From UHGV virus genome UHGV-0388612: a DNA stretch of 17,813 nucleotides; one strand, 5' to 3'. Both the position numbers and the translations under genes were made by a program. This DNA comes from a virus. Positions 80 through 17,797 of the stretch are shown here, one piece after another (the stretch's first letter is position 1; the number at the start of each line of letters is the position of its first letter). The notes beneath the pieces are model-generated. The model saw nothing but the letters and a program-made list of their open reading frames with translations. It made no database searches and had not been told where the DNA came from.

Positions 80-328
80 CTATGGCATCCATTGAACAAC
101 GCTTTTACGTACAGGAACAACTTTGAAGATTGTGTGCAAGGATGTGGGTGCCTGTTTGCATCGTTTATTGTAGTGCTTTATAGCCTTGTCCTTATCTGTG
201 AACGAAACGATAAGTTCACCGTCGCACCAGTATTCGTACTTAACATCCTCATGCGCAGATAGCATAGATGCTCCTTTCGTATTTGAATCAGTACATTCTA
301 CAAAATCATAGAAGCCACGCTTGCGCAT
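80..328 (-). CDS. hypothetical small Cys-containing protein (82 aa)
   Basis: ATG-initiated ORF MRKRGFYDFVECTD... at the distal end of the terminal cassette. The composition looks protein-like. The Shine-Dalgarno is weak (GGGGAT about 10 nt upstream). It overlaps the preceding ORF by 31 nt in another frame. Confidence 0.35.
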   Translation of the reverse strand: MRKRGFYDFVECTDSNTKGASMLSAHEDVKYEYWCDGELIVSFTDKDKAIKHYNKRCKQAPTSLHTIFKVVPVRKSVVQWMP

Positions 329-600
329 ATTCCAATCATCCCCATCGTCATACCGATAACCGCAAGTTTTAAGTTCCTTTCTGTTCTTGTCATCATTTCA
401 ACATCAACCCGTCCAATTCGTGTGTACAAATCATCACAAGTCTTTGAAATGGAATCGAACTGCTCACGACGTGTACCAATCTCGTCCTGCAAGTCATCAT
501 TCAAATCAAGCATCATGCTGTTGTACTTGTCCTGAATGGAACTCACTGTACCCATCTGTGGCTCGTTCGGTGTCTCAAACTCCATGAACTCTGCAACCAT
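298..600 (-). CDS. hypothetical protein with C-terminal hydrophobic segment (about 100 aa)
   Basis: The ORF-track entry 298..696 begins at a GTG. I prefer the internal ATG at 598-600 (MVAEFMEFETPNEP...), which directly abuts the stop of the upstream 60-aa membrane ORF (602-604) and is preceded by GGGGGTAAG. The C-terminus LKLAVIGMTMGMIGICASVASMIL is TM-like. Confidence 0.4.
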   Translation of the reverse strand: MVAEFMEFETPNEPQMGTVSSIQDKYNSMMLDLNDDLQDEIGTRREQFDSISKTCDDLYTRIGRVDVEMMTRTERNLKLAVIGMTMGMIGICASVASMIL

Positions 601-601
601 C

Positions 602-784
602 TTACCCCCAATACGCGAACTGATAACAAACCAACAGGCATCCGATAATGACGATGCCCACACCTGCACGTGCTGCGCGTATGTTCTCGCGCTCACGTCT
701 CCAACACGTGTTGCAATCCGTGCTTGTCAACGAACAATAGACTAGCGCGGTACCGAACAGAATCACGGCTATGCAGACTAGCAT
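602..784 (-). CDS. small membrane protein, two predicted TM helices (60 aa)
   Basis: ATG at 782-784 overlaps the stop of the upstream 95-aa ORF by 7 nt (778-784), suggesting coupling. It has two hydrophobic stretches (LVCIAVILFGTALVYCSL and GVGIVIIGCLLVCYQFAYWG) separated by a charged loop RRERENIRAAR. Confidence 0.45.
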   Translation of the reverse strand: MLVCIAVILFGTALVYCSLTSTDCNTCWRRERENIRAARAGVGIVIIGCLLVCYQFAYWG

Positions 785-1065
785 TTCTTCCCCGTCACCG
801 TTGAAACGTACTCGAAGAACTCGTTCACATCACTGTCCATGTCGAACATGATTCCGCTCAACGGTTCGCTGGTTTTCGGCTTAACCCTAGTGGTGAACCC
901 GCTCTCCTTCCCGTCCATGTACTCGATAATCTCGAACAGTTCCTTGCTGGCGCAAATCAGCAGCCCGTCACCACCAGCTTGCTCTTCCATGAGAAGTTCC
1001 AACGGGCAACACTTGTGGAGTATGTACACCTCTCCGTCACGGTAGGAATAGAACAACTTACCCAT
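778..1065 (-). CDS. hypothetical acidic protein (95 aa), first gene after terminator/promoter junction
   Basis: ATG at 1063-1065 with SD GAAAGGA 7 nt upstream. A sigma-A-like promoter lies about 35 nt upstream. Confidence 0.5.
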   Translation of the reverse strand: MGKLFYSYRDGEVYILHKCCPLELLMEEQAGGDGLLICASKELFEIIEYMDGKESGFTTRVKPKTSEPLSGIMFDMDSDVNEFFEYVSTVTGKKC

Positions 1066-1101
1066 AGCACAGTCCTTTCAATCGGTTTTGCCTGCAATAG
1101 T

Positions 1102-1130
1102 ATAGTATCAAAAACCACTTGCCTTGTCAA
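1102..1130 (-). promoter_or_regulatory. sigma-A-like promoter: TTGACA, 17-nt spacer, extended -10 TGaTACTAT
   Basis: Minus-strand read: TTGACA (1130..1125), AGGCAAGTGGTTTTTGA, TACTAT (1107..1102). The predicted TSS is about 30 nt upstream of the ATG at 1065. The -35 overlaps the U-tract of the preceding terminator. Confidence 0.5.
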
Positions 1131-1160
1131 GAAGAAAAGCAGCCCTCTTCCGAGGGCTGC
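1131..1160 (-). terminator. Rho-independent terminator after endolysin gene
   Basis: Perfect 9-bp GC stem GCAGCCCTC / GAGGGCTGC with a 4-nt loop, followed on the minus strand by UUUUCUUCUUG. It begins 3 nt after the endolysin stop (1164-1166). Confidence 0.7.
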
Positions 1161-1163
1161 AAG

Positions 1164-2111
1164 CTAGATGCCGTAATACACGCTGTTCACATAGTCCTGC
1201 ACAGTCTGGTAGTCATAACCAGCAGCCGTAAGGCGGTCGTACCTGTCCTGACCGTTTCCGTAGTTGCCAAGGTACACGTCGTATGCAACGTCGGCAATCC
1301 AATCGGAACCAGTTGAACCGCCGCCGATGCCGTAATACACACGGTTCACATAGTCCTGCACGGTCTGATAGTCATAACCAGCAGCTTCAAGATTGTACTG
1401 TCGCTCTGGCTGGTTTCCGTACCATCCCTGCAACACACCGTATGCGGCTTCCTCGATGCTGCCAGGAACAGGCGCTTCTGGCGTATCGGGTGCGGAACCC
1501 TCGCCATCGTCATAGGTCATAGCAGACGGGTTGTCGAGGTAATACTGAACAAGGTTCTCGAAATCGCCCCAAGTCTTGCCCCACTTTGCGAAGTACGGAA
1601 TAGGGTCAACGTGGTCTGTGCCGCCCCACACGTAACGCGCTTCGTTGTGGGACACCATTCTGTCGATGCCCCAACCCTGCTGGTTGAGGTACACGGCGCA
1701 CCATTGCGCCGCCGTGTCGAATCCAACCTCGAAGTCGTGCTGGTTGGTGGCTTCGCAAATCTCGATGCCGACGCTGTACCAGTTTCCGTTGCCAACGTGC
1801 CACGCAACGGCGTTTCCGCTCATGGTCTGGTACACCGTGCCGCCGTCAGTCCAGTCGACGACCCAATGAGCCATAGGCGCATCATTGCCCATTCGCTGCC
1901 AATACTGAACATGGTTCCAAGCTGTCGCACCCTCGTTAGCAGTGGAATGCACCACAAGGTTCTGCGGTTGGAACCAACCGTGGCCGTCCGCAATGATGTT
2001 GTCGTATTCCGTCCATGCGTATGCGGGCGCGGCTGTGCCGACCAGCATAGCGAACACGGCAAGCGCCGTGATTGCGCCGATTCTAAGACGCTTCATAAAA
2101 GTGCCGATCAT
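1164..2111 (-). CDS. endolysin: Sec-type signal peptide + Amidase_2 (PGRP-like N-acetylmuramoyl-L-alanine amidase) + 2 CW_7 cell-wall-binding repeats
   Basis: Preferred start is the ATG at 2109-2111 (MIGTFMKRLRIGAITALAVFAMLVGTAAPAYA|WTEYD), with SD GGAGGG 5 nt upstream. It has an n-region, h-region and AYA cleavage motif typical of a signal peptide. The catalytic region carries an Amidase_2-like block (WHVGNGNWYSVGIEICE ... VSHNEA). The C-terminus holds two 40-aa repeats ...GN(Y/W)GNGx(D/E)RxxRLxAAGYDYQTVQDYVN..., matching the CW_7 motif known from pneumococcal phage Cpl-7-type lysins. Confidence 0.85.
   Translation of the reverse strand: MIGTFMKRLRIGAITALAVFAMLVGTAAPAYAWTEYDNIIADGHGWFQPQNLVVHSTANEGATAWNHVQYWQRMGNDAPMAHWVVDWTDGGTVYQTMSGNAVAWHVGNGNWYSVGIEICEATNQHDFEVGFDTAAQWCAVYLNQQGWGIDRMVSHNEARYVWGGTDHVDPIPYFAKWGKTWGDFENLVQYYLDNPSAMTYDDGEGSAPDTPEAPVPGSIEEAAYGVLQGWYGNQPERQYNLEAAGYDYQTVQDYVNRVYYGIGGGSTGSDWIADVAYDVYLGNYGNGQDRYDRLTAAGYDYQTVQDYVNSVYYGI
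1170..1390. repeat. tandem DNA repeat (units about 1170-1231 and 1329-1390, period 159 nt, about 90% identical) encoding the two CW_7 modules
   Basis: gccgtaatacacgctgttcacatagtcctgcacagtctggtagtcataaccagcagc versus gccgtaatacacacggttcacatagtcctgcacggtctgatagtcataaccagcagc, read directly from the sequence. Confidence 0.75.
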
Positions 2112-2112: not shown

Positions 2113-2295
2113 CTAACCCTCCATCTTGTCCACATGGTCATCGAACTTCGTGGTGAGCGCGGTAATGGCAAGCGTGAGGTCTTTCAGCGTGTCGTTCATC
2201 TTGACGTAAAGCCACCCCATGAAGCAGCAAGCCACGATAGGGAACCCCACGCTGCCGATAGCCGTGATCACCATATCGAACGTAGTAGTGTCCAT
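2113..2295 (-). CDS. putative holin (60 aa, single TM)
   Basis: Strong SD GGAAGGAGG 6 nt upstream of the ATG at 2293-2295. One 24-aa hydrophobic helix (MVITAIGSVGFPIVACCFMGWLYV) is followed by a charged C-terminal tail. Its stop lies 1 nt from the endolysin start. The call is by position and architecture only. Confidence 0.5.
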   Translation of the reverse strand: MDTTTFDMVITAIGSVGFPIVACCFMGWLYVKMNDTLKDLTLAITALTTKFDDHVDKMEG

Positions 2296-2308: not shown

Positions 2309-3334
2309 CTAAAATCCCAGATAGTCGAACACGTTGTTGAAGAACTCTCGCGTCTCGATAGTGTCGAAGAACACGCTTCCCTGCATGTACAGCTTGCGAA
2401 CGCTTCTCAACACGACACTAGACTTCTCTATCATAAGCAGGTTAGGCTGCATATCCGATTTTGTCAAGACGTAAACAAGAGCATCCTTCGGGTACCTGCT
2501 TGAAACGTAGTAGGCACCTTCCGTGTAGTCCACCCAAACACCGACCGTCCTGTTGTCGAACCGCAACGCGAAGTAGAATCTCGCTTCCTCCGATTTCTTG
2601 GCGATGAACTTGTCGTTGTCATCGTAGAACATGTTTCCCACTGCGTAATCGTAATAGGACGTTCCACGTATCATCTGACCGAATCTTGTCGTGTCCACGT
2701 GCGCCCTGAACCGATCGCTCTGCACAATCTCTACACACATGTACCCTTTGTGCGCCATGAGAAAGCGCTTTCCCTTCCTCGGCTTCAACCTCCATCCGAT
2801 GAAGTACGGATTGGTGAGCGCCACGGCGTTAGCCATGAACATAACCTTAACCCTGTCCTGAAATCGGTCAACCGTGTTGTAGAAGTCTTGGAACTGCTTC
2901 AACTCGTTTTGCAAGTAATGCAGCGAACCCTTGTCAATGATGAACTCGTCAAATCCTATCATATCAACGTCGGGATAGGGTACAGACTTTTTGGTCAGCG
3001 CGTTTGCCAACGTGATGAAGAAACATAGCACGCGCCATTTCTCTGGCTTTTCATCACCTATCGCAACCTTTCTGATGTACCCTTTCATTCCCTCAACTTT
3101 GAACTCCCACGATGGGAAGCGGTCAACAATATCCTGAAAGAACTCCTGCTTGTCATCGAACTCCGACTTGTATCTGCGCAAGTATATGAACTGCTTACCA
3201 GTCTTTATGAAATGCCTGATTCGTTTGTACTTGAAATCATACGTCTTGCCAGTGCCACGCCCGCCGATAACGAAATTGAACATAGCGTTGCGCGTCATAA
3301 TGTCGTGAGAATCGTAATACATGCTGTCGCTCAT
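2309..3334 (-). CDS. DNA packaging ATPase (phi29 gp16 family)
   Basis: Similarity along the length to phi29 gp16. Walker A is FNFVIGGRGTGKTY (phi29 NFVIGARGIGKSY). Walker B is MIGFDEF (phi29 TIVFDEF). Also FIYLRRYK, NPYF and GVWVD blocks match. The chosen start is the ATG at 3332-3334 (MSDSMYYD...), which overlaps the upstream stop as ATGA. The first in-frame ATG at 3355 has no SD. Confidence 0.9.
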   Translation of the reverse strand: MSDSMYYDSHDIMTRNAMFNFVIGGRGTGKTYDFKYKRIRHFIKTGKQFIYLRRYKSEFDDKQEFFQDIVDRFPSWEFKVEGMKGYIRKVAIGDEKPEKWRVLCFFITLANALTKKSVPYPDVDMIGFDEFIIDKGSLHYLQNELKQFQDFYNTVDRFQDRVKVMFMANAVALTNPYFIGWRLKPRKGKRFLMAHKGYMCVEIVQSDRFRAHVDTTRFGQMIRGTSYYDYAVGNMFYDDNDKFIAKKSEEARFYFALRFDNRTVGVWVDYTEGAYYVSSRYPKDALVYVLTKSDMQPNLLMIEKSSVVLRSVRKLYMQGSVFFDTIETREFFNNVFDYLGF

Positions 3335-4602
3335 AGGTACCGTCTCACCTCCCAATAATACATGTACCGTGGATAGTTCCTAGCATCGGTTGTGGTTTGG
3401 TCTGGTCCGTAATCGGGTCCACCATGTCCCCAAAGTTCATTGTTGCCCATGTACAGTTCAACGTGGTCAAATGAGCCGTTCCAACCATTCCACATAATCA
3501 GCACCAAATCGGCTGGCTCCATATCCTCGATGGGTAGGTTGTCACCAGAATAGCCGCTTGCTATCTTCGTCCCCTTGCCCGCCATAGCGCCCGTCCACGT
3601 GCCAACGTCGATTCCAGCAACCTGCTGGTACGCGAACCACACCGTAGAAGAACAGTCACCATATCCGCTGCTTATGGGGTCAAGCCGTCCAGCACCCTGC
3701 GAGTACGCGAACCTGTCAAGCCATGAGCGGTACAATTCGCATATGGCGTTCTGCGCTTCGCTTCCGCTCTCCGAACCGCCGCCCTCGTTGCCGCCGCCAA
3801 TGTCAGTTCCGTTCGCGTTGTACCCGTTAATCCAAACCTGTCCAGATGCGGGATAGAATATAACGCCTTTTTCGTACTCGTCTCTGCCATATAATATGAG
3901 TGTATCGCCATTTTGAATTATGTACCCCAACTTGCTTTCTTCTGTGCTAATCCCAGGGTTGTTGCCCCCCGGCGTTGTGTCAACGTCTCCGCTCTGACCG
4001 AAATCAGGCGGGTTGCTCTCACCGTCCCAATCCTTCAATCTCTGGTACACGGTGTTGTAGCGATTCCTGTACTGCCCAAGAACTCCGTGGTTCATGCAAA
4101 CGGTGTAAATCCTATCGAGGTCGGCGCTGCCGCCCGCCGTCGCTATCACCTGCCCCGCACTTGCTGGTGATTGATGGTACATGCTCATTGCGAAAATCAA
4201 CGGTTTAGGATAGGACTGACTCATGCCCCAATTTTCAAGCGTTGTGATGTACCCCTCGAAATCCACAATCGCCTGATTCTCTTGAATAACGTGGTTCTCT
4301 TTTTCTTGGAAAACAGTTATGATGCTGTTTCCCTCGTCCCTGTTAAGGTACCTGCTAGTCCACCATGTACTACCAGCATCATGGGATTCAATGTCCGAAC
4401 GCAACGAAGCAGCCAACTGCCCGTAGGCAGTTGGCATTTCGTTTTTGATGCGGTTGAGCAGCGCAGCAGCCCGTGTACCATACCACTGCATCATCCCTAT
4501 CGTGATAGGGTCGTTGTAGTTCACGGCAGTCCAATTCCAGTTGGATTCTACCTCGCCGATAACGTACATGGCATAATAGCATATGGTTCTGGTACTTGGC
4601 AT
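3331..4602 (-). CDS. tail-associated peptidoglycan hydrolase (phi29 gp13 position): N-terminal lysozyme-like domain, Gly-rich linker, C-terminal NlpC/P60-like cysteine peptidase
   Basis: N-terminus GEVESNWNW...GMMQWYG resembles the lysozyme-like (glutamate-dependent) tail lysin fold. A GGGNEGGGSESGSE linker follows. The C-terminus carries YGDCSSTVWFAY ... FDHVELYMG, a Cys...His arrangement typical of NlpC/P60. SD AAGGAGTGA sits 3 nt upstream of the ATG at 4600-4602. Confidence 0.7.
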   Translation of the reverse strand: MPSTRTICYYAMYVIGEVESNWNWTAVNYNDPITIGMMQWYGTRAAALLNRIKNEMPTAYGQLAASLRSDIESHDAGSTWWTSRYLNRDEGNSIITVFQEKENHVIQENQAIVDFEGYITTLENWGMSQSYPKPLIFAMSMYHQSPASAGQVIATAGGSADLDRIYTVCMNHGVLGQYRNRYNTVYQRLKDWDGESNPPDFGQSGDVDTTPGGNNPGISTEESKLGYIIQNGDTLILYGRDEYEKGVIFYPASGQVWINGYNANGTDIGGGNEGGGSESGSEAQNAICELYRSWLDRFAYSQGAGRLDPISSGYGDCSSTVWFAYQQVAGIDVGTWTGAMAGKGTKIASGYSGDNLPIEDMEPADLVLIMWNGWNGSFDHVELYMGNNELWGHGGPDYGPDQTTTDARNYPRYMYYWEVRRYL

Positions 4603-4612: not shown

Positions 4613-5539
4613 TTACTGCGCGCCGAAGTACACAAGCCCAACGCCGTTTACCGTTCCAGCACTGTGCGCTTGGGAATCCCAAACTGACAGTTTCACCGCA
4701 CCGCTGGGATAGACGTGCAAGATGCCCCAACCGCTGAAACAGGATTGCGACATCAATCGCGTGGGTCGGTACCCTTCGGGAACGGTGCCAAGCGCGGTGT
4801 TTATCCAGTTGCCGCTGCCAGAAGTGTTGAGAGATGTGTTGTCAAGCTGCACGCTGACAACCTTGGTAATGCTGTTGGCATAAACGGAAAACGTGCCAGA
4901 ACCAGAGATACCGTCACTGTAATTAACGGTCTTAGCTGCAATAAGAGGCTTGGGAGCAAGCGCGCTTCTAAGCTCGTTAATCTGGTCTGCGACCATCTTC
5001 GGCGATGCCGCAGTGCCAGTGGACGCAGCAGCCGCGCCGTCGTCCACAACCTTCAAATGCCCGAAGTTCGTAGACGAACCCTGACCATAGGTGTTGGCGG
5101 TGCTTGCGTGATCGGTCGGTGCTTTCCCGTTCACGGCAGTCTGCAATCCGTTAATGTCGTTCTGCGCTTCCGTGATATCGCCCTCTGCCGCGGTCACGCG
5201 ACCAGTGAGCGACGTAACGTCGGATTGCGTGTCCGCAATGCCGCTCTCGTTGGTCTTTGCGAGGGAAAGCGCGTCATTAGCCGTCTTTTGAACGTCCGTG
5301 ATTTGCGTCCCGTGCGTCTCCACAGTGGATTCCAGCGCCGAAATGCCCTTCTGCGCTTCGGTCATCTGCGTTTGCAGCGTGAGAACGTTGGCGTTGGCGT
5401 TGGTAACGTCATCCGCGCTCTTCTTCATCTGCGTGTCAATCTTTCCCATTGCGGCGTTGTACTGGTCACGCAGGTTCGGCTTGTCAGCCGAAGCGTACAG
5501 GTCAAGATTGTAGTTCGGCGTGTATTCCGTAGCCATCAT
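4613..5539 (-). CDS. tail fibre / receptor-binding protein, long paralog (308 aa): conserved N-terminal anchor, Ala/Thr/Gln-rich coiled-coil stalk, beta-rich C-terminal head
   Basis: N-terminal 39 aa are about 56% identical to the adjacent 119-aa ORF (MMATEYTPNYNLDLYASADKPNLRDQYNAAMGKIDTQMK). The central region has a heptad-like TQ/AE-rich sequence. The C-terminus ends ...GLVYFGAQ like its paralog (GIVYFKPAS). It shares an identical 24-nt start/RBS element with the paralog. Confidence 0.6.
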   Translation of the reverse strand: MMATEYTPNYNLDLYASADKPNLRDQYNAAMGKIDTQMKKSADDVTNANANVLTLQTQMTEAQKGISALESTVETHGTQITDVQKTANDALSLAKTNESGIADTQSDVTSLTGRVTAAEGDITEAQNDINGLQTAVNGKAPTDHASTANTYGQGSSTNFGHLKVVDDGAAAASTGTAASPKMVADQINELRSALAPKPLIAAKTVNYSDGISGSGTFSVYANSITKVVSVQLDNTSLNTSGSGNWINTALGTVPEGYRPTRLMSQSCFSGWGILHVYPSGAVKLSVWDSQAHSAGTVNGVGLVYFGAQ

Positions 5540-5555
5540 TCACTCCCTTCTACGA
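5532..5555. repeat. 24-nt perfect direct repeat copy 1 (gccatcattcactcccttctacga) spanning start codons and RBS of fibre gene 2
   Basis: Identical to 5902-5925. On the minus strand it reads TCGTAGAAGGGAGTGAATGATGGC (SD AAGGGAGTGA plus ATGATG). Confidence 0.85.
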
Positions 5556-5909
5556 TGCGGGCTTGAAGTACACAATGCCCGCTTTGGTCACTTTTGCTTC
5601 CGACAACTGCTGCACAGTCAGAGTTGTGTCGTTATCTTGCGGCTTAAACGAACCGCCTTCCAAATTGGCCACCCTGCCCGTGAGCGCGGTGATTGCCGCT
5701 TCGTTCGCGTTAGCCGTTTCCAACGCGCTGTCTGCTGTGGACTTAGCCGTACCTGCCGCCGACGTTGCGGATGCCGCTTCGTCGGAATTGGCTTTCATCT
5801 GCGTGTCGATTTTCTCCATCGCCTGATTGTACGCACCCGTAAGGTCTGGCGCGTCCGTGTCGGCGTAAGTCGGCAACTGATAGTTAGTCGTTGGCGTTCC
5901 TGCCATCAT
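5550..5909 (-). CDS. tail fibre / receptor-binding protein, short paralog (119 aa)
   Basis: N-terminus MMAGTPTTNYQLPTYADTDAPDLTGAYNQAMEKIDTQMK is paralogous to the 308-aa protein, followed by an Ala-rich stretch and a short C-terminal domain. Its start overlaps the upstream stop (ATGA). Confidence 0.55.
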   Translation of the reverse strand: MMAGTPTTNYQLPTYADTDAPDLTGAYNQAMEKIDTQMKANSDEAASATSAAGTAKSTADSALETANANEAAITALTGRVANLEGGSFKPQDNDTTLTVQQLSEAKVTKAGIVYFKPAS

Positions 5910-5925
5910 TCACTCCCTTCTACGA
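5902..5925. repeat. 24-nt perfect direct repeat copy 2 at start of fibre gene 1
   Basis: Identical to 5532-5555. Confidence 0.85.
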
Positions 5926-6508: not shown

Positions 6509-6521
6509 AAATCTCACCTCC

Positions 6522-11803: not shown

Positions 11804-12134
11804 TGTTGCTGTCCTCCTTGTCATCGGTGAAAAGGTTGTCGATGTGGTACACGGTGCCGTCATCGTCCACGTCCTCAACGACAACACCGTCACCGTCGTT
11901 GTCGGCGGGAATCTGCATCAGCAGGTCATAGTTGCGAGCCTTCAAACTCTGAATGTCAGCCTTCATGGCTTCCTCGTTCGACGCATACTCGCTCATGCGG
12001 GCTTCCGCAGAACTTCGGTACTCGTCGGCATCCGCTCCCCGCTTAGCCATGTCCGTGAGGAACGTCTCTGCGGTCGCGTACTCGCCATCCTCCATCCTCT
12101 CACGGAGCCAAGCGAGCAAATCCTCTAGGTTCAT
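11793..12134 (-). CDS. scaffolding protein (phi29 gp7 position; 113 aa, acidic, helical)
   Basis: ATG at 12132-12134 (MNLEDLLAWLRERMEDGEY...) with SD GGAAGGAGAAG. It overlaps the MCP start by 11 nt. Composition and position match gp7. The longer track ORF (to 12215) runs into the structured non-coding region. Confidence 0.6.
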   Translation of the reverse strand: MNLEDLLAWLRERMEDGEYATAETFLTDMAKRGADADEYRSSAEARMSEYASNEEAMKADIQSLKARNYDLLMQIPADNDGDGVVVEDVDDDGTVYHIDNLFTDDKEDSNNGN

Positions 12135-12146: not shown

Positions 12147-12192
12147 CCAACAAAATAGCCCCCGCCATCTGGTTGTGACCGTGGCGAGGGCT
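12147..12192 (-). terminator. intrinsic-terminator-like hairpin immediately upstream of the scaffold gene RBS
   Basis: Minus strand: AGCCCUCGCCA (12192..12182), a 14-nt loop, UGGCGGGGGCU (12167..12157). This is an 11-bp stem with one G-U pair, followed by CUAUUUUGUUGG. Confidence 0.5.
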
Positions 12193-12317
12193 GACTGTGC
12201 TGGTGATATTGCCATTCCCGAAACGCCGCCGCTGCTAATGCGGCTCGCACTCGTGCGGGCGGTATCACCCGTAGCAACCCCGCATCGGTCATCGTCCAGA
12301 CGGATTGGGTATCACCA
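12147..12317 (-). ncRNA. candidate about 170-nt structured non-coding RNA (pRNA-like packaging RNA, or an attenuator leader)
   Basis: A promoter TTGACA-17-TATGTT lies immediately upstream and an intrinsic terminator lies at the 3' end. The sequence is GC-rich with multiple nested inverted repeats: GGUGAUA (12316..12310) pairs with UAUCACC (about 12209..12203); CGCC...GGCG encloses two hairpins, CGCA-CGAG-UGCG and GCCGC-AUUAGCA-GCGGC. No ORF is supported in this stretch. The length is close to the 174-nt phi29 pRNA. Confidence 0.3.
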
Positions 12318-12322
12318 TAGCC

Positions 12323-12351
12323 AACATAACCCACTTCGCAAGCACTGTCAA
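12323..12351 (-). promoter_or_regulatory. sigma-A-like promoter TTGACA(12351..12346)-17 nt-TATGTT(12328..12323)
   Basis: Read from the sequence. The -35 overlaps the RHH gene stop codon. It is oriented toward the structured region and the late genes. Confidence 0.45.
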
Positions 12352-12515
12352 GCACTCGCGTTCATTTTCACCAGATCAATCGAATCGGAGTAGGCGTTCA
12401 AAAACTGCGAGATTGCGACGCGCACCAGATACGATATGGGCAGGTTCTCCCTCTCGCCAATCTCCTTCAACTGCTCGTACATGGATTCGTCAATCCTGAA
12501 ACTGCGCTCAATCAT
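12348..12515 (-). CDS. ribbon-helix-helix (Arc/MetJ/CopG-like) DNA-binding protein, 55 aa
   Basis: Not in the ORF track because it is under 60 aa. The ATG at 12513-12515 has a perfect SD AGGAGGT 6 nt upstream and lies 12 nt after the DNAP stop. The sequence is MIERSFRIDESMYEQLKEIGERENLPISYLVRVAISQFLNAYSDSIDLVKMNASA. It has an N-terminal beta-strand with alternating residues (RSFRID), then two helices, the RHH signature. Confidence 0.6.
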   Translation of the reverse strand: MIERSFRIDESMYEQLKEIGERENLPISYLVRVAISQFLNAYSDSIDLVKMNASA

Positions 12516-12529: not shown

Positions 12530-14242
12530 TCAGGTGAGCGTGAACGTTATGGGTTCGAGCACTATACCACCCCTAACGTGCCTTGGCTTCAACTTCCCGT
12601 GAAGCTGCAAGCCCCTCTTGAAACTGTCGAACGTCACCATGCGCTTCAACTCCTCTGGCATACCGGCGCACTTAACGTCATCGAACGGCTGAACGTCAAC
12701 CATCCTGTATTCGCCATCAACCATCTTGCCAACCTGATATATTCTCTCCATGTACGTCTTAGCCCTGATATATTTAGCCATGCTGAAATTGCTCTCATGC
12801 TTCCACGCGCCCAAACGTGTAGGATGCACCTCCAAACCCTCGGGAATGTCTGTGCCGCAAATGTGTATGCTGTCCGTGTCACAGTACATGAACCTATCGT
12901 ATACGCTTTGCGCTGCATTGATGGTCTTGTACCTAGCCCATGCGGTAATAAAGCAACCCATAGGCGTGTACACGGGGTCGCGCGTCTCTTTCTCTCCCAA
13001 TCTGTACCCAACTGAACCGTCCTCTTTCAAGTAAGGCAGTTTCGGCGTAACGTCGGGGTTCGTGGCGAACTTGCCATAAAGTGAGTTCAACATGAGCTTC
13101 GCAAGCTGTCGCAAACCGCCCGTGGTAGTTTCTTTAATGTGCATCCAATAGTCTATGTAATCTTTGAACAGCCCAGTGGCTTGCTCGAACATGTACCCGC
13201 CGTTGTACGAAAACACCGTCACGTCGTACTGCTGCATGAGTATTTCCAAGTCTATGTTGGTCAAAGCCAACTCAACTGTTCCCTCCGTGTCATGGATGTA
13301 CTCCGTTTCGGAGAAAAACGGGTTGTTCTTAATCTGCAACGTGGGGAGGTGGTCGGGCTTCAACTTGCAATGGCAGGTGAGGAATTGAATGTACAGGGGA
13401 TATTGGGGGTTGTCCTTGTACTCTCCGTGGAAATATATCGGCTGCCCGATTGGCAACGGTCTGTTGTACATAACGTCGGGGTACAGCGAGTTAACGTCAA
13501 ACGCAGCCCCGTAGCCCTGCAACCTGTCCTCGTGTTCCTCGTCAGCCTGAAACCTAGGGTTCGCGTATGTGTAGCCGCCGCGATACGCCTTGCGTATCAT
13601 CGCGTCCATTTCCAGATGAATCTTAGGGAACCAGTCATCCCACTTCGAGCCTATTATGTCCTTGTACCCGTTGAGCGCGTCGCTTCCGATGGTAAGCCTG
13701 TCAAGCCCCTTGCCGAACTGCTGATGCAGCGCCCTAGCGACGATCTGAACGTCGTTCCTGATGTAGTCTCGTTCCTGCGCTGTCAACTCGTGACCTATGG
13801 GGCGGTACTCCGTATAGTCAATCTCCAACTTGGATATGGGGAGGTCGAAAGCCTTTGCAATCTGCGATACCTTCATGGGGAGTTTCTTCAAGCTGTCTTT
13901 GAATGTGCAGGTTAGCGCTTTCTTCTTGCCCTTCTTCTCAAAGCAAACCTTCATCTGATAGAACTTGCCCATGTTTGATATGAGCGTTTTGAAAGTCTTT
14001 GTCCTCGCCTTTTCGCTGTACTCAAATCCGTTGGTCAGCAGGTACCATATAATGAACTCACAATCGAATGCAGCATTGTGGAAATAATATGTACCGCCGT
14101 GAACCTTGCAGAAATCAAGAAACGTGGCAATGTCCGTTCCATAGCTTAGTGCGTCGGGGTTGTCAATCTCGCACACGCACCACGCCCAAACGCGACAATC
14201 ATTTATATCTATGGTTGTCTCGAAGTCTGCGGCGTACTCCAT
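12530..14242 (-). CDS. protein-primed family B DNA polymerase (phi29 gp2 family)
   Basis: High similarity over the full length to phi29 DNAP. Motifs present: Exo I DFETT; Exo II YFHNAAFDCEFI; Exo III YIRNDVQI; motif A DVNSLYP; motif B KLMLNSLYGKF; motif C YCDTDS; plus YNGGYMFEQATGLFKDYIDYW and PVYTPMGCFITAWARY blocks. Confidence 0.95.
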   Translation of the reverse strand: MEYAADFETTIDINDCRVWAWCVCEIDNPDALSYGTDIATFLDFCKVHGGTYYFHNAAFDCEFIIWYLLTNGFEYSEKARTKTFKTLISNMGKFYQMKVCFEKKGKKKALTCTFKDSLKKLPMKVSQIAKAFDLPISKLEIDYTEYRPIGHELTAQERDYIRNDVQIVARALHQQFGKGLDRLTIGSDALNGYKDIIGSKWDDWFPKIHLEMDAMIRKAYRGGYTYANPRFQADEEHEDRLQGYGAAFDVNSLYPDVMYNRPLPIGQPIYFHGEYKDNPQYPLYIQFLTCHCKLKPDHLPTLQIKNNPFFSETEYIHDTEGTVELALTNIDLEILMQQYDVTVFSYNGGYMFEQATGLFKDYIDYWMHIKETTTGGLRQLAKLMLNSLYGKFATNPDVTPKLPYLKEDGSVGYRLGEKETRDPVYTPMGCFITAWARYKTINAAQSVYDRFMYCDTDSIHICGTDIPEGLEVHPTRLGAWKHESNFSMAKYIRAKTYMERIYQVGKMVDGEYRMVDVQPFDDVKCAGMPEELKRMVTFDSFKRGLQLHGKLKPRHVRGGIVLEPITFTLT

Positions 14243-14244: not shown

Positions 14245-15060
14245 CTACCTACGTTTTTTGCTTTTACGCTTGCGTTTTCCGGTCTGCTTCTTGGGGTACT
14301 GGTTCTGAACCTGTTGAATGGTCAGTATCATATGCTCTTTCTGCGCTTCATCGTCCATAGCGTCAGCCTGCGCGCCCATAACGTTATCGCGGTCGGTGTT
14401 TATGTACCTGTAATAAAGGGGGACGAAGTTTGTGAAGTTCTGCAACGCAAACAGTTGTTCGTTGCTCAACTTCCTAATCATGTTGGGTATTCGCGGGTCG
14501 TTGAACGTCGCGGCGTGTTCCAAAAGGTTCTTGCGAAGCTGCGTTATCCGCTTGCGCTGGTACGTCGGGGATAGTTCGCGCTTCAAAATCTGCGATCGCT
14601 TCCGCAAATCCGCTTCGCTGCGTATCTGCTCGGGGAGTAGTTGGCGCTGATAGTCTATGTTGCCGAACGGCAAGCCCTTAACATGAGCCATAGCCGAACG
14701 CATCCCCAATGTTGTATCGCTCTCGCCGTAGGCGGTTAGGAACGGATGCGCGGCGAACTTCTGCCAATATCTGTTATGTTCCCTGTTCCATTGCCTTTCA
14801 AGCCGTTTGTAATCCCTATAAGCCGTGTACGGTATCGGGGTACCGTCGCGCCCCGCGACAAAACGTGTCGAACGTGATATGAACTTTTCCAACTGGTTGG
14901 CGTATGAGTTTAGCACCCTCGTGTTCGACGGGTCAACCGTCCTGAACGGCTCTACGCTGCCCGTCCTTATGCCCTTGTTCTGCAATCTCTTGATTTTGCG
15001 CCGCGCCCTCCGTTCTGCATCCGCAACACGGGCGCGGGCGTTCTCGTTAGCCTTGGTCAT
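14245..15060 (-). CDS. terminal protein (phi29 gp3 position), strongly basic C-terminal tail
   Basis: Immediately upstream of and translationally coupled to the DNAP (stop TAG, then CT, then ATG). SD AAGGAGGTGA is 4 nt upstream of the ATG at 15058-15060. The length is 271 aa (phi29 TP is 266 aa). It is rich in R/K/Q and helical in character. It ends in KKQTGKRKRKSKKRR. Confidence 0.6.
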   Translation of the reverse strand: MTKANENARARVADAERRARRKIKRLQNKGIRTGSVEPFRTVDPSNTRVLNSYANQLEKFISRSTRFVAGRDGTPIPYTAYRDYKRLERQWNREHNRYWQKFAAHPFLTAYGESDTTLGMRSAMAHVKGLPFGNIDYQRQLLPEQIRSEADLRKRSQILKRELSPTYQRKRITQLRKNLLEHAATFNDPRIPNMIRKLSNEQLFALQNFTNFVPLYYRYINTDRDNVMGAQADAMDDEAQKEHMILTIQQVQNQYPKKQTGKRKRKSKKRR

Positions 15061-15129: not shown

Positions 15130-15546
15130 TTACTTGTGGCGCTGCAAGCTGGTGAACTTGTACCCGTTGCGCCCCTGCTTCTTCACAACTTCGAACTTGA
15201 TTGCGGGATTCCACGGCGGGCAACCTACGATGCTGAAAAGGTTCTTCATCGAGGTTTCAACGCCCGTGCTGGTGCATCCGTAGGCATCGCCCTTCGGGGT
15301 GATAAGCACGATGCGATTGCGCTGCATAATCTCACCCGTCGCATTGTCGGTCATTTCCACGGGCTGAATAATGACGTTCTCAACCTCAACGACCTTCCCC
15401 ACCATGTCATCGAGGGAGAGGGAGTTAGAAACAGCCTCGTAAATGTCCAGCCTGTCCTCTTGCGTCTCCGCATGAATCGAGCAATACATGCCCTTAACCA
15501 TATCGGGCGCGTCGTTCGTGATGGTCGCAAGTTCGGTGTTCTCCAT
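15130..15546 (-). CDS. single-stranded DNA-binding protein (phi29 p5-like)
   Basis: The N-terminus MENT... is identical to phi29 p5, and the C-terminus ...YKFTSLQRHK resembles p5 ...VFFSLQLSL. Size is 138 aa versus 124 aa. It sits between the p6-like and TP genes. SD AAAGGA is 7 nt upstream. Confidence 0.65.
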   Translation of the reverse strand: MENTELATITNDAPDMVKGMYCSIHAETQEDRLDIYEAVSNSLSLDDMVGKVVEVENVIIQPVEMTDNATGEIMQRNRIVLITPKGDAYGCTSTGVETSMKNLFSIVGCPPWNPAIKFEVVKKQGRNGYKFTSLQRHK

Positions 15547-15586: not shown

Positions 15587-15597
15587 GCTCTACCGTG

Positions 15598-15858
15598 TTA
15601 GTCCTCGTCCGCTTCTGTCGCGTCGCAAGGGGTGCCGTACTTCTTGAAGTCCTCAAACGTCATCTTGTACAGCTGCTCATGCTCCACAACGTCAACGGCT
15701 GCAAAACTAGGCTCCTGCTTGCGAATGAGCGCTTGAGCGGTGTTCAGGCCGCACTTCTTGTCAAGCTGATAGGCAACCTGCACGGGCTGACCGTCCTTGA
15801 TAACGTACCCGCGCACCTCCGTGCTTGTGAACTTCTTCTGAATCGTGTTGCGTGCCAT
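15598..15858 (-). CDS. small early protein, candidate dsDNA-binding/nucleoid protein (phi29 p6-like), acidic C-terminus
   Basis: First gene after a near-consensus promoter. It is 86 aa with an acidic tail (CDATEADED), like p6. SD GGAAAGGA is 7 nt upstream. It lies upstream of the SSB as in the phi29 gene 6-5 order. Confidence 0.5.
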   Translation of the reverse strand: MARNTIQKKFTSTEVRGYVIKDGQPVQVAYQLDKKCGLNTAQALIRKQEPSFAAVDVVEHEQLYKMTFEDFKKYGTPCDATEADED

Positions 15859-15898: not shown

Positions 15899-15927
15899 AT
15901 ATTACGCCTTTCGGTGCGGCTTGTCAA
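15899..15927 (-). promoter_or_regulatory. early promoter TTGACA(15927..15922)-17 nt-TAATAT(15904..15899)
   Basis: Read from the sequence. The predicted TSS is about 34 nt upstream of the p6-like ATG. A second TTGCAA hexamer lies 20 nt further upstream. Confidence 0.55.
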
Positions 15928-16109
15928 GTATTAAAACCCACTTGCAAGCCGATCCACAAAACCTACATAATTGGGGAGCTAGTCCGCATCATCAATCTTG
16001 ATGACCGCATACCATACCTCCGTGATAGTCGATAATCTTACGAACGTTCTTTTCCAATTTAGTCTCCATTGTACTACCCCTTTCTAACAGATGGGCATGT
16101 TGCCTAAAT

Positions 16110-16298: not shown

Positions 16299-16371
16299 CG
16301 ATACCCCCTGCAAATGTAAACCATTCCGATTGCATATGCTATGATGGCGAATATGGTTTCCGGGTTCATAG

Positions 16372-16530
16372 TCACCCTACTTTCTTCATGGAAACGAAAA
16401 CGTAAGACGGATGTTTTTCCATGAATTGAAGATATTCGCATGCTGCTTTGATCGTATCACAGTGCATATGTTTAAGCTCGTAAACCCCGGTTTCTTTGTT
16501 GAGTTGGTAATATTTGATTACGTAGAACAT
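16372..16530 (-). CDS. hypothetical small protein (52 aa), below ORF-track cutoff
   Basis: The ATG at 16528-16530 is preceded by a strong SD AAAGGAG at 6 nt. The sequence is MFYVIKYYQLNKETGVYELKHMHCDTIKAACEYLQFMEKHPSYVFVSMKKVG. Confidence 0.4.
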   Translation of the reverse strand: MFYVIKYYQLNKETGVYELKHMHCDTIKAACEYLQFMEKHPSYVFVSMKKVG

Positions 16531-16595
16531 GGTAGGCTCCTTTGACTTGTTTAACTGACACTTACATTGATAGCGAGAATCACGTCCATCGTTGC

Positions 16596-16913
16596 CTACT
16601 CAACAATGCCCGCAGCAAACCAATACGGGCTATCATCGTCCGCACCTTTCGCCGTCGCGCGAATATCGGCAGCGCTCATATCGGGCACGAAGTCGCAAAA
16701 ATCATTGATGAACGCATGTACATGCTTCCACGTGGTTACGCTGTAGTCATAGCGCGGAAGCAGATAGCAACGCATCTTGCAGAACACAGCCACACGCGAC
16801 GCATACGAGGTGAGAACGTACGCATTTTCAAGATGGATGTTCTCGCCATTCTCAAGCCTTAGCGTGATGGATGCCACATGTTCAACGGTGGCGCTCATGT
16901 TGCGGAGTTTCAT
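16596..16913 (-). CDS. hypothetical protein (105 aa), first gene downstream of the minus-strand promoter at 16963-16991
   Basis: ATG at 16911-16913 (MKLRNMSATVEHV...) with SD GAAAGGA 6 nt upstream. The track ORF extends 15 codons further upstream without an SD. Confidence 0.5.
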   Translation of the reverse strand: MKLRNMSATVEHVASITLRLENGENIHLENAYVLTSYASRVAVFCKMRCYLLPRYDYSVTTWKHVHAFINDFCDFVPDMSAADIRATAKGADDDSPYWFAAGIVE

Positions 16914-16991: not shown

Positions 16992-17053
16992 TAGCTGTTT
17001 ATGTTCTCCATATTTCCTACATAAAGCCGCATAATCCACTTGAAAATATGTAC

Positions 17054-17082
17054 TTGACAACTGTACACGATTGTTATATTAT
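17054..17082 (+). promoter_or_regulatory. divergent plus-strand promoter TTGACA(17054-17059)-17 nt-TATTAT(17077-17082)
   Basis: Read from the sequence. The TSS is about 22 nt upstream of the ATG at 17111. The AT-rich 17071-17085 also offers TGtTATATT. Confidence 0.5.
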
Positions 17083-17110
17083 AATAGTACACCAACCGAA
17101 AGGAGTAACA

Positions 17111-17362
17111 ATGTACAGCACCAGCGAACAGGTATACACAGCGGCTAACAACCTCACTGACAATATAGGCGGCTTCTTTAGCGAACTGCTGCGGCTGCTG
17201 TTCACGCTGATTGATACGCTTATAGAGTGCGCTATGTATGTCTTTGATTGCGTCACAAGTAACCCCGTTCTACTGCTTGCGTTCGTCGTGTGCTTCATGT
17301 ACTATATACGCCGCAAGTATTATGTGCATAGTGTGAAGCCTAAGCGTGTACGTAAGCAATAA
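17111..17362 (+). CDS. small membrane protein (83 aa), the only well-supported plus-strand gene
   Basis: SD AAAGGAGT is 4 nt upstream of the ATG. The sequence is MYSTSEQVYTAANNLTDNIGGFFSELLRLLFTLIDTLIECAMYVFDCVTSNPVLLLAFVVCFMYYIRRKYYVHSVKPKRVRKQ. It has a hydrophobic helix (PVLLLAFVVCFMYYI) followed by a basic tail. Confidence 0.55.
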   Translation: MYSTSEQVYTAANNLTDNIGGFFSELLRLLFTLIDTLIECAMYVFDCVTSNPVLLLAFVVCFMYYIRRKYYVHSVKPKRVRKQ

Positions 17363-17374
17363 CATAATATGTAC

Positions 17375-17403
17375 TTGCATATGCTCACCACCTATGCTAT
17401 AAT
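17375..17403 (+). promoter_or_regulatory. promoter TTGCAT(17375-17380)-17 nt-TATAAT(17398-17403), plus strand
   Basis: Consensus -10, read from the sequence. The TSS is about 21 nt upstream of the ATG at 17431. Confidence 0.55.
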
Positions 17404-17430
17404 ATAGTCACAAAGAAAGGAGATATACAT

Positions 17431-17610
17431 ATGAATGATGTTGTTATTGTTCCTCATGTGCTCCCTAACCCGTACAAGACTGCGGCGCTGGGGAGGTACA
17501 TGGGGAACGGAGGGAACAAAGTACAACATTATCGCCGTAGACGGCGACTAGCGCTGATTATAACCGGCTCAGCCATCAGTAATACCTCCCCAACTGTTTC
17601 ATGTACTTGA
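17431..17610 (+). CDS. hypothetical small protein (59 aa) with Arg-rich segment
   Basis: SD AGGAG is 8 nt upstream. The sequence is MNDVVIVPHVLPNPYKTAALGRYMGNGGNKVQHYRRRRRLALIITGSAISNTSPTVSCT. Its 3' end overlaps the convergent minus ORF by 35 nt. Confidence 0.4.
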   Translation: MNDVVIVPHVLPNPYKTAALGRYMGNGGNKVQHYRRRRRLALIITGSAISNTSPTVSCT

Positions 17611-17797
17611 TGAACTGTCGAAGATGGTACTGAGCTTCTTTTCCAACTTCCGGGTCTGATACTTCCAGCTGCTTCTTCCCGGTGTCGCATATTCTTATCT
17701 GTACAGTGGCGGATATATACATATCAGTTTCAACCGTGTATTTAACATCTTCGATTTTATAAACATTATCCTCGATGATCTGAATAGTATCTACCAT
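17576..17797 (-). CDS. hypothetical protein (at least 73 aa), possibly N-terminally truncated by the window edge
   Basis: The sequence looks protein-like (MVDTIQIIEDNVYKIEDVKYTVETDMYISATVQIRICDTGKKQLEVSDPEVGKEAQYHLRQFIKYMKQLGRYY). There is no SD before the ATG at 17797. The reading frame stays open to the window end, so the true start may lie outside. Confidence 0.35.
   Translation of the reverse strand: MVDTIQIIEDNVYKIEDVKYTVETDMYISATVQIRICDTGKKQLEVSDPEVGKEAQYHLRQFIKYMKQLGRYY

Follow-up and report, generated by a model that had tools for sequence, protein, structure and literature searches.

An already known gene layout in a falsely circularised genome of a phi29-like phage, probably of Eggerthella or a close relative

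The window, the whole stretch of 17,813 nucleotides analysed here (UHGV virus genome UHGV-0388612), carries the genes of a phi29-like phage in an order that departs from that of phi29. Does this order represent a new genome architecture? The preliminary description called it distinct unless a relative with the same layout had already been described. We found that the layout is already annotated in Actinomyces phage Av-1, Arthrobacter phage Mendel, and Eggerthella phage LE1-1, for which the same gene order and orientation have been deposited; the window is colinear gene by gene with Av-1 and Mendel. The layout is thus of the Av-1/Anjalivirus type, which is ordinary and already known. The window very probably represents an essentially complete genome, about 17.9 kb long, of a phi29-like protein-primed podovirus that is lytic and probably infects the gut bacterium Eggerthella or a close relative. 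The real molecule would be linear, bounded by inverted terminal repeats (ITRs) of about 75 bp, and was falsely circularised in the assembly. The lineage of this phage is common among the IMG/VR virus contigs.

Family matches in Pfam and PHROG were obtained for every core gene (Table 1), which bears out the phi29-type gene content, and the identification as a phi29-like protein-primed podovirus of a Gram-positive host was upheld. In the ORF list, every large ORF is on the minus strand; the replication module precedes the late module and runs in the same direction. The genome had been described as fully co-directional; this holds for all large ORFs but not for the 83-aa gene at 17111-17362, on the plus strand. 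The GC content (52.0%) is above that of phi29 (40.0%), as had been noted, and the ATGA and TGATG stop/start overlaps are present at 8170, 7271-7274, 5906-5909, and 3331-3334.

Table 1. Features of the window, listed in gene orientation from the left genome end
Feature	Coordinates	Strand	Evidence or remark
Inverted terminal repeat, single copy	17449..17510	.	Positions 14-75 of the ~75-nt ITR of relatives
orf83, small membrane protein, 83 aa	17111..17362	+	AAAGGAG ribosome-binding site
orf105, early small protein	16596..16913	-	phrog_5643, E 2e-7; conserved in 13 relatives
LE1-1-like module, contains orf52 (16372-16530)	16316..16566	-	90% DNA identity to LE1-1 left end
Putative early promoter	15899..15949	-	TTGACA-17-TAATAT at 15927-15899
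p6-like dsDNA-binding protein (weak assignment)	15598..15858	-	phrog_6370, E 3.4e-4; conserved in 23 relatives
phi29-type SSB	15130..15546	-	PF17427 Phi29_Phage_SSB, 9e-15
Putative terminal protein	14245..15060	-	phrog_6358 'DNA terminal protein', 5e-6
Protein-primed family-B DNA polymerase	12530..14242	-	PF03175 DNA_pol_B_2, 4e-76
Ribbon-helix-helix (RHH, Arc-like) DNA-binding protein	12348..12515	-	PF01402, 3e-6; phrog_3180, 8e-11
Second promoter (putative)	12323..12351	-	TTGACA-17-TATGTT, GCTTGCGAAGTGGGTT in spacer
Conserved structured RNA, ~170 nt	12150..12319	-	Covariation
orf113, scaffold-like by position	11793..12134	-	Conserved in 35 loci
Major capsid protein	10358..11803	-	PF25622 Phi29_MCP, 1e-109
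Tail knob (gp9-like)	8170..10347	-	PF20934 + PF16838 (phi29_gp9_C, Caud_tail_N)
Connector / upper collar (gp10-like)	7271..8170	-	PF05352 Phage_connector, 3e-56
Lower collar (gp11-like)	6522..7274	-	phrog_3225, 6e-38
Three tail-accessory ORFs: orf203 (5906-6517), orf119 (5550-5909), orf308 (4613-5539)	4613..6517	-	
Tail-associated peptidoglycan hydrolase (gp13 analogue)	3331..4602	-	PF00877 NlpC/P60 at C-terminus; phrog_1015 (tail protein with lysin activity)
gp16-type DNA packaging ATPase	2309..3334	-	PF05894 Podovirus_Gp16, 9e-72
Holin	2113..2295	-	phrog_4898, 3e-7
Endolysin	1164..2111	-	Amidase_2 + two CW_7 repeats (repeat D2)
Predicted intrinsic terminator after lysis genes	1139..1160	-	9-bp GC-rich hairpin + T run
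Right-end small genes orf95, orf60 (membrane), orf100, orf82	80..1065	-	Conserved in L048-L051
Non-functional remnant, last 23 codons of LE1-1-type ATPase gene	8..79	-	97% DNA identity to LE1-1
orf73, last gene before right end	17576..17797	-	88% aa identity to LE1-1 LE11_20

In gene orientation, the map begins with the left ITR (near 17510), followed by the leftward membrane-protein gene, a putative divergent promoter region, and small early genes. After the putative early promoter come the genes for the p6-like protein, SSB, terminal protein, DNA polymerase, and RHH regulator, and then a second putative promoter and the structured RNA of about 170 nt. The late operon comprises the genes for the scaffold-like protein, the capsid, the tail knob, the connector, the lower collar, the fibre proteins, the tail lysin, the ATPase, the holin, and a secreted amidase. 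Beyond a predicted terminator, a putative promoter and five small right-end genes lead to the right ITR, which is absent from the window.

The sole opposite-strand gene, orf83, points towards the left genome end and has a putative promoter at 17054-17082 (TTGACA-17-TATTAT, 11/12 match); in 10 relatives it is conserved and likewise opposed to the other genes, at amino acid identities from 98% down to about 30%. At the putative early promoter, the upstream motif GCTTGCAAGTGGGTT sits within an imperfect palindrome. The terminal protein had no match in Pfam or PDB; a weak PHROG match and its position directly upstream of the polymerase gene, as in Av-1 and phi29, suggest the putative assignment, and it is 27% identical to Mendel gp7. 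The full-length polymerase is 53% identical to that of Hungatella phage CH17P1. The RHH gene closes the early operon, and Mendel has an RHH gene at the equivalent position. The -10 position of the second promoter is conserved in all relatives, and the RHH protein together with the shared 15-16-nt motif may constitute an early/late switch.

The stretch 12135-12350, where the preliminary description suspected a chimeric junction or coverage break, proved to be a conserved RNA element, and contigs 98% identical to the window run through it. In this RNA, the 5' and 3' ends of a domain of about 118 nt pair with each other and so close it; a hairpin and then a U run come after it. In our model, 94% of cells are paired, compared with 35-53% in shifted control pairings, and 23 of the 47 pairs are changed on both sides. 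A UGCUA strand is complementary to a UAGCA loop, and both covary such that complementarity is kept as they change. We found no conserved ORF in the region and no Rfam match, and the model detected no RNA in Mendel. The element is a candidate prohead RNA and/or late-operon leader. Like the phi29 prohead RNA, it is about 170 nt long, has its own (here putative) promoter, and places an end-closed domain of about 118 nt before a 3' hairpin domain. Positions 44-48, just 5' of a hairpin, are complementary to positions 83-87, which form the apical loop of the hairpin that follows; in the phi29 prohead RNA, the loop pair is at positions 45-48 and 82-85. Unlike the phi29 prohead RNA, which has three helices at the junction, the present RNA has four or five, and it lies between the early and late genes, where the first late gene's ribosome-binding site comes directly after it. 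The LE1-1 RNA has a three-way junction of the phi29 prohead-RNA shape and is located upstream of the ATPase gene instead of between the early and late genes. The conserved folded RNA of the window may be of greater interest than the layout.

Among the late genes, orf113 had no family match in PHROG or Pfam; over 57 amino acid residues, it is 35% identical to Mendel gene 10, a small ORF just upstream of the Mendel capsid gene. The best isolate matches of the capsid protein are from Arthrobacter and Curtobacterium phages (about 40%). Only 10 nt separate the capsid stop from the knob start, confirming that no head-fibre gene lies between them. The two paralogs reported in the fibre region are likewise real: the 119-aa and 308-aa ORFs are 35% identical (E 6e-14) and share an identical 24-nt ribosome-binding-site/start region (repeat D4). 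The larger one is a coiled-coil fibre protein, whose coiled coil resembles P22 gp26 (4lin, E 4e-6) and whose C-terminal domain varies between close relatives. The tail hydrolase is 34% identical to the Av-1 'antireceptor' gp14. The N-terminus of the endolysin reads, by eye, as a Sec-type signal sequence. The lysis genes do follow the ATPase gene, and a strong terminator is predicted after them; however, it does not close the genome, because a putative promoter (1130-1102) and five small ORFs on the same strand come after it.

Positions 80 and 17797, between which the genome had been described, are not linear genome ends: related linear contigs, and LE1-1 as well, run without interruption across the point where positions 17813 and 1 meet. 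The real ends mapped to about 17508, and the related linear contigs ended in a hairpin-forming ITR of about 75 bp. Linear contig 3300045988_017072 (L007 and L048) crosses the 17813/1 point and has the same 56 nt inverted at both ends, adjoining Nextera adapter sequence, and seven independent contigs end 0-3 nt from a common terminal sequence (ACACTCTGGCCCCCC, ACTATGGCCCCCC, or TATGCCCCCC). The outermost bases are approximate, since assemblies lose bases at the termini. The ITR copy in the window is in left-end orientation and forms a hairpin of about 20 bp; a second, inverted copy was not found in the window. A truly circular or circularly permuted genome, packaged by headfuls or maintained in a plasmid-like form, would also make the window ends contiguous in relatives, and the LE1-1 record is labelled circular. 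We nevertheless consider a biological circular order very unlikely: some of the independent linear contigs that share the end sequence with inverted repeats end directly at adapters, terminal inverted repeats also occur in the LE1-1 record and its relatives, the window encodes a protein-primed polymerase and a gp16-type ATPase, and its gene list includes no terminase small subunit. Furthermore, the 24-mer at the junction of the window occurs in no IMG/VR contig. The junction at about 17505-17510 is a real assembly artefact of the window, and the ITRs of the relatives suggest protein-primed replication of a linear genome. We infer the assembler's route to this junction, which simple k-mer collapse does not fully explain because the ITR hairpin arms are not exact complements. 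The window opens at an arbitrary point of the false circle.

Three stretches match Eggerthella lenta phage LE1-1 at the DNA level (251 nt, 90%; 262 nt, 84%; 79 nt, 97%), although identities between core proteins are only 31-44% in the direct comparison. These short modules of 84-97% identity, including the dead ATPase gene end, suggest that the host is probably Eggerthella or a close relative; recombination with LE1-1 is the sole basis of this assignment, the lysin and fibre giving no host signal. The module at 16316-16566 lies within a variable slot (16019-16599); contigs that are otherwise 98% identical to the window carry a replacement there. The closest relatives lack this module, which might conceivably stem from co-assembly with an LE1-1-like phage; phages of that kind abound in the same IMG/VR data. 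That the window as a whole is a chimera of two co-occurring Eggerthella podoviruses, with the LE1-1-like pieces as artefacts rather than recombinants, is unlikely, given that the right-end module (17551-17812 plus 1-79) recurs in two independent contigs, L048 and L051, where its junctions are the same, that the identities to LE1-1 fall short of 100%, and that own-lineage sequence flanks each module on both sides, which would require two crossovers per module. As for an architecture not seen before, in which the early operon is inverted, the lysis cassette relocated, and the head fibre lost, the early operon does run inverted relative to phi29, with genes 14/15 after gene 16, and the best isolate matches are no more than 40-53% identical. 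Even so, we regard this reading as extremely improbable. Av-1, Mendel, and LE1-1 share the order, the strand, the position of holin and lysin after the ATPase, and the absence of the head fibre, and a related polymerase is found in 42 IMG/VR loci, several of them 97-99% identical, and these loci are colinear with the window; about 40 relatives, some of them 98-99% identical, are already in IMG/VR. Gene-order rearrangements are frequent among phi29-like phages, according to a 2024 review of 2115 sequences (PMC11476376).

Av-1 (Dybvigvirus Av1, NC_009643; 17.2 kb, 49.5% GC) is annotated on one strand with SSB, TP, pol, head, tail, collars, antireceptor, terminase, holA, holB, and lysA. Like the window, it has a small ORF, a promoter, and a scaffold-position ORF between the polymerase and capsid genes, and lacks a head fibre. 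Its core proteins are colinear with and 32-47% identical to those of the window, with no detectable DNA similarity between the two. Av-1 differs in having opposite-strand small genes (ORFs A-D) at the right end, whereas the single one of the window is at the left end, in its type of lysin, and in its packaging RNA, which its record places at the right end. In Mendel and Anjali (Anjalivirus), the left-end small genes point leftward and all others rightward, as in the window. The polymerase gene is followed by an RHH gene, a structured gap of about 170 nt, a strong hairpin, a scaffold-position ORF, and the capsid gene, and the ATPase gene by membrane proteins and an amidase; the absence of a head fibre is stated for Mendel. 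These phages give the best isolate matches for capsid (40%) and tail (36%), but they infect soil Micrococcaceae, have 59.8% GC, and carry additional tail and esterase genes after the lysin.

LE1-1 (Guelinviridae, MW679025), of human-gut or sewage source, likewise carries its 23 annotated genes on a single strand, has lysis-type genes behind the ATPase gene and no head fibre, and contains a unit of promoter, folded RNA, hairpin, and ribosome-binding site. However, its core proteins are just 26-44% identical to those of the window, a holin and a lysozyme also precede the ATPase, and its terminal sequences are different. Finally, phi29 (Salasmaviridae) has the same core gene set and keeps the late order 7 to 13, with identities to the window of 50% for the full-length polymerase, 36% for the ATPase, 32% for the capsid protein, and 31% for the connector. 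It differs in that its early operon (6 to 1) diverges from the late operon and gene 16 comes after genes 14 and 15; it also possesses a head fibre (8.5), the appendage gp12, an ITR of 6 bp, and a prohead RNA encoded at the left end of a genome with 40% GC.

Above all, a structured RNA is worth recording in this genome, together with its true termini and an exchange of DNA with Eggerthella phage LE1-1. The gap between the ribbon-helix-helix (RHH) gene, the last early gene, and orf113, the gene in the scaffold position, is 213 nt long in the window and 210-218 nt long across 27 relatives, and its conservation exceeds that of the genes on either side. The gap holds no reading frame shared by the relatives; a 74-aa ORF at 12131-12355 was dismissed as non-coding, all frames being closed both in L022 and in L032. 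The RNA is located on the minus strand at 12150-12319 (about 170 nt). Its conserved block begins about 7 nt past a position-conserved -10 element and ends at its 3' side with a hairpin and a U run, 12 nt ahead of the ribosome-binding site of orf113. Folding by RNAalifold and by a covariance model (R1) gave a domain of about 118 nt, whose own 5' and 3' ends are paired, followed by the 3' hairpin. With R1, each relative whose polymerase is at least 66% identical yielded exactly one copy per genome.

In the curated structure, 94.3% of cells pair, as against 35-53% when the partners are shifted by 1-3 columns, changes on both sides occur in 23 of the 47 pairs, and none of 500 shuffles reached the observed values; these figures come from an alignment that was fitted to the model and that covers only about five independent lineages. 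In the window, UGCUA, a 5-nt strand just 5' of a conserved hairpin, is complementary to UAGCA in the apical loop of the next hairpin. This pair covaries among the relatives: it is UGCCA/UGGCA in L028, GCCA/UGGC in L032, and CCC/GGG in the L023-L031 group. At column pair 51/89, 12 sequences have U-A and 7 have C-G. Watson-Crick complementarity between the two loops is kept by covariation, as in a prohead (packaging) RNA, and would fit pairing either inside one molecule or between molecules.

We found another folded RNA in LE1-1 (L001), in a 209-nt gap ahead of the ATPase region. This RNA, at L001 12537-12700, folds as a three-way junction with the shape of the phi29 prohead RNA and consists of a closing helix, a long helix with a 5' internal loop, a GUGAAA hairpin, and a second hairpin. 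It is also present upstream of the ATPase gene in 34 related contigs (L060-L094), and in all 35 LE1-1-like contigs complementarity persists between the internal loop and the loop of the second hairpin, while the sequences change from GGGC/GCCC to GUGCA/UGCAC. The top match of a model of the LE1-1 RNA (R2) was at the RNA locus of L028, a weak match of 12 bits (E ~0.1); homology of the window RNA and the LE1-1 RNA is only hinted at. The three-way-junction RNA is unannotated in the GenBank record of LE1-1.

The window and LE1-1 have the same unit of promoter, folded RNA, hairpin, and ribosome-binding site, and in these two lineages the unit stands before different genes, which favours an RNA acting in trans. 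The phi29-type packaging motor is the obvious client of such an RNA. We consider it slightly less likely than not that both RNAs are prohead RNAs; they would then be the first covariation-supported prohead-RNA family outside the Bacillus phages, and the window-lineage RNA, located at the early/late boundary, would double as leader of the late operon. The main rival explanation, which we consider somewhat less likely again, is that the RNA at 12150-12319 acts in cis as a leader, such as an attenuator of the late operon or an antiterminator of the put type. Its position, directly between a promoter and a terminator-like hairpin, is the one expected of such a leader.

R1 gave nothing significant in Actinomyces phage Av-1, Arthrobacter phage Mendel, LE1-1, or the Hungatella phage CH17P1. 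Rfam returned neither a prohead RNA nor any other credible family for the whole window and its sub-regions; it likewise fails to find the packaging RNA that the Av-1 record annotates, and its negative result for the window therefore carries little weight. To our knowledge, prohead RNA has been demonstrated experimentally in Bacillus phages only. Up to now it has been considered exclusive to these phages (PMC11476376). If the prohead-RNA interpretation is true, work on packaging motors and on RNA nanotechnology would gain two new sequence families in which the loop-loop covariation arose naturally.

Corresponding gaps were observed in Mendel (L004 4934-5105) and Av-1 (L003 4471-4611), after an RHH gene or a small ORF and before the gene in the scaffold position; there, a closed domain is followed by a very strong hairpin right before the ribosome-binding site. 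Elsewhere in the window, the left-end region 17363-17510 was rejected as a prohead-RNA site, its structure being the hairpin of the inverted terminal repeat (ITR). The gap at 15859-16109 was also rejected as an RNA site; only about 110 nt of it are conserved, and these hold a promoter and a palindrome.

The preliminary description had placed a phi29-like genome at 80-17797. These positions are not the ends of a linear genome: the segments 17551-17812 and 1-79 are adjacent in LE1-1 and in the related linear IMG/VR contigs L048 and L051, and the window is a falsely circularised assembly. Contig 3300045988_017072 (L007, left part; L048, right part) has the same 56 nt inverted at both ends, abutting a Nextera adapter, and this ITR grows to about 75 nt in longer contigs. 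The near-identical relatives, with an inverted repeat of 56-75 nt at both ends of linear contigs, thus conform to the linear genomes of 15-20 kb with ITRs that phi29-like podoviruses have, and seven independent contigs end 0-3 nt from a common terminal sequence. The ITR (window 17449-17510, L009:1-75, and the last 75 nt of L051) begins with a conserved sequence, ACACTCTGGCCCCCC or ACTATGGCCCCCC; it is nearly palindromic in itself and folds into a hairpin of about 20 bp. In the window, one ITR copy is present in the left-end orientation (17449-17510), and no inverted partner was found. The window junction at 17505-17510 reads CCTCCGTTCC followed by CCATGTACC, and the 24-mer across it is absent from all IMG/VR contigs. 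Because the ITR is a near-palindromic hairpin and the right-end unique sequence matches the outer ITR at 11 of 13 positions, exactly at the switch point between them, we infer that the junction is an assembly path through the repeat. A break had also been suspected at 12135-12350, where contigs of 98% identity in fact run unbroken from 5181 to 16019. For the whole IMG/VR clade, the real genome ends and an ITR of about 75 bp that forms a hairpin are now defined, which helps to correct contigs miscalled circular and places the replication origins.

Several further observations concern the ends of contigs. At the right end, the ITR palindrome reaches into unique sequence. Nextera or TruSeq adapters abut the phage termini at L007:1-44, in the last 44 nt of L048, at L026:1-48, at the right ends of L061 and L079, and at L044:1-50. 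A 19.1-kb relative (contig 3300045988_054355) has an unrelated left 3.7 kb (L008:1-3771) encoding lipoprotein-like proteins on the other strand, and is probably chimeric. The GenBank record of LE1-1 is labelled circular, with an inverted repeat near both ends (L001 1-43 and 15902-15944), and the right ends of related contigs (L067, L068, L081, and L084) continue to a shared terminus, AGTATAAAAGTAAATCTGACACCC. Because of these repeats and this common terminus, the LE1-1 genome is probably linear and slightly truncated in the record.

Judging from the gene set and the termini, replication would be protein-primed, starting from the ITRs by means of the terminal protein and the polymerase. Transcription would start from a divergent promoter pair near the left end, from an early promoter at 15927-15899 that would drive the genes of the p6-like protein, SSB, terminal protein, polymerase, and RHH protein, and from a promoter at 12351-12323 ahead of the RNA and the late operon. 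After the lysis genes, where a strong terminator had been described, a GC-rich hairpin of 9 bp and a T run form a putative terminator at 1160-1139. It does not mark the genome end: it is followed by a putative right-end promoter (1130-1102) and five further small ORFs on the same strand. A motif of 15-16 nt, GCTTGC(G)AAGTGGGTT, has only two copies in the window (minus strand, 12328-12343 and 15935-15949; none expected by chance), one just upstream of the early -35 element and the other within the spacer of the promoter at 12351-12323. We speculate that the RHH protein, encoded between the two copies, is a candidate binder of this putative operator and a functional analogue of phi29 p4.

The isolation host of LE1-1 was Eggerthella lenta DSM 2243. 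This species is a drug-metabolising gut bacterium for which few phages are known. The window and LE1-1 have three stretches of DNA in common, of 251 nt (90% identity), 262 nt (84%), and 79 nt (97%). An LE1-1-like module (16316-16566) occupies a slot at 16019-16599, the contents of which are replaced in the closest relatives. Within the 79-nt stretch, at 8-79 on the minus strand, a 72-nt remnant of an LE1-1-type packaging ATPase gene (the last 23 residues, 97% identical to LE1-1) lies out of context, directly after the stop codon of orf82, a small right-end gene. The remnant is a recombination scar, and it shows that the module of orf73, another small right-end gene, derives from a genome of the LE1-1 type. 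The exchange shows recombination between two deeply diverged phi29-like lineages and provides a lead to the host. Recent exchange despite core-protein identities of only about 26-44% argues for a common host, and Eggerthella or another member of the Eggerthellaceae is rather likely to be the host of the window phage. Searches of the endolysin against species genomes matched only the CW_7 repeats, in Abiotrophia and Ruminiclostridium, and searches of the lysin and the fibre against a phage collection gave no host signal, so that these searches added no independent support. Four phages of E. lenta smaller than 20 kb are mentioned in the Gut Phage Biobank paper. phiKL11 and PMBT5 were rejected as relatives; their papers describe larger, unrelated phages.

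ORF calling with Pfam and PHROGs recovered the complete phi29-type gene set on the minus strand, including the capsid, gp9 tail knob, gp10 connector, and gp11 lower collar families (see the table). The terminal protein candidate had no match in Pfam, and a PDB sequence search gave no support either. By its polymerase, structural proteins, and packaging ATPase, and by the ITRs of its near-identical relatives, the window belongs to the broad group of phi29-like protein-primed podoviruses (Salasmaviridae, Rountreeviridae, Guelinviridae, Dybvigvirus, and Anjalivirus).

Genes of the window with family matches (Pfam and PHROGs)
Feature	Coordinates	Strand	Support
p6-like dsDNA-binding protein	15598-15858	-	PHROGs 3e-4, weak
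Phi29_Phage_SSB	15130-15546	-	Pfam 9e-15
Putative terminal protein	14245-15060	-	PHROGs phrog_6358, E 5e-6; adjoins polymerase gene
DNA_pol_B_2, protein-primed family-B polymerase	12530-14242	-	PF03175, Pfam 4e-76
Arc-like RHH protein	12348-12515	-	PHROGs
Phi29_MCP, capsid	10358-11803	-	PF25622, Pfam 1e-109
gp9 tail-knob domains	8170-10347	-	Pfam, PF20934
Phage_connector, gp10 type	7271-8170	-	PF05352, Pfam 3e-56
Lower collar, gp11 type	6522-7274	-	PHROGs, phrog_3225
Tail protein with lysin activity	3331-4602	-	PHROGs
Podovirus_Gp16 packaging ATPase	2309-3334	-	PF05894, 9e-72; profile positions 1-326 of 331
Holin	2113-2295	-	PHROGs
Endolysin, Amidase_2 and two CW_7 repeats	1164-2111	-	Pfam

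Most details of the preliminary description were borne out. The lysis genes follow the ATPase gene; only 10 nt separate the capsid gene from the tail-knob gene, so that no head-fibre gene stands between them; four gene junctions are stop/start overlaps of the ATGA or TGATG type; and the GC content is 52.0%, above the 40.0% of phi29. The two small paralogs are ORFs of 119 and 308 aa (E 6e-14), with a duplicated ribosome-binding site and start region. The C-terminal half of orf308 (4616-5001, minus strand) is swapped or has diverged strongly in contigs that are otherwise 98% identical, showing 76-91% identity or no match, and its coiled coil resembles that of P22 gp26. This swapping is typical of a receptor-binding domain and, with the coiled coil, is consistent with orf308 being a receptor-binding fibre. 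The endolysin N-terminus (2015-2111, minus strand) begins with MIGTFMKRLRIGAITALAVFAMLVGTAAPAYA followed by W and, read by eye, resembles a Sec-type signal peptide whose cleavage site is of the AxA type; judged from this apparent signal peptide, the lysin may be exported without need of the holin.

The genome is not fully co-directional as claimed. One gene, at 17111-17362 on the plus strand, encodes an 83-aa membrane protein and runs the opposite way. Its ribosome-binding site is strong, no other promoter match in the window is as good as the one it has (TTGACA-17-TATTAT, 17054-17082), and the gene is kept on the opposite strand in 10 relatives, down to about 30% identity. Identities to proteins of isolated phages are low (polymerase 44-53%, capsid 31-40%, and ATPase 25-40%). 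Among isolates, the window represents a new lineage of genus level or higher. In IMG/VR, by contrast, a related polymerase is already present at 42 loci, and at several of them it is 97-99% identical.

phi29 does have the divergent map described. The window falls outside the Salasmaviridae, the phi29 family proper, which has a divergent early operon at the left and lysis genes ahead of the ATPase gene, in gene order and in pairwise identity, with 50% for the polymerase (residues 3-569, against phi29) and 25-36% for the other core proteins. Pairwise identity of its core proteins to those of LE1-1 (Guelinviridae) is 26-44%. The observed layout is largely real, but its interpretation as a distinct new architecture is not supported, as relatives with the same layout have already been described, and the layout adds little beyond one more uncultivated gut phage. 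Frequent rearrangement of gene order was noted in a 2024 survey of 2115 phi29-like sequences (PMC11476376). The Av-1 record lists, on one strand, ssb, TP, pol, head, tail, upper collar, adaptor, ORF13, antireceptor, terminase, holA, holB, and lysA. Mendel, which like Av-1 is colinear with the window gene by gene, has small leftward genes at the left end and all other genes rightward, with an RHH gene after the polymerase gene, and in LE1-1 all 23 annotated genes are on one strand. The window accordingly has a layout of the known Av-1 / Anjalivirus type, in which the replication module is upstream of and co-directional with the late module and the lysis genes follow the ATPase gene.
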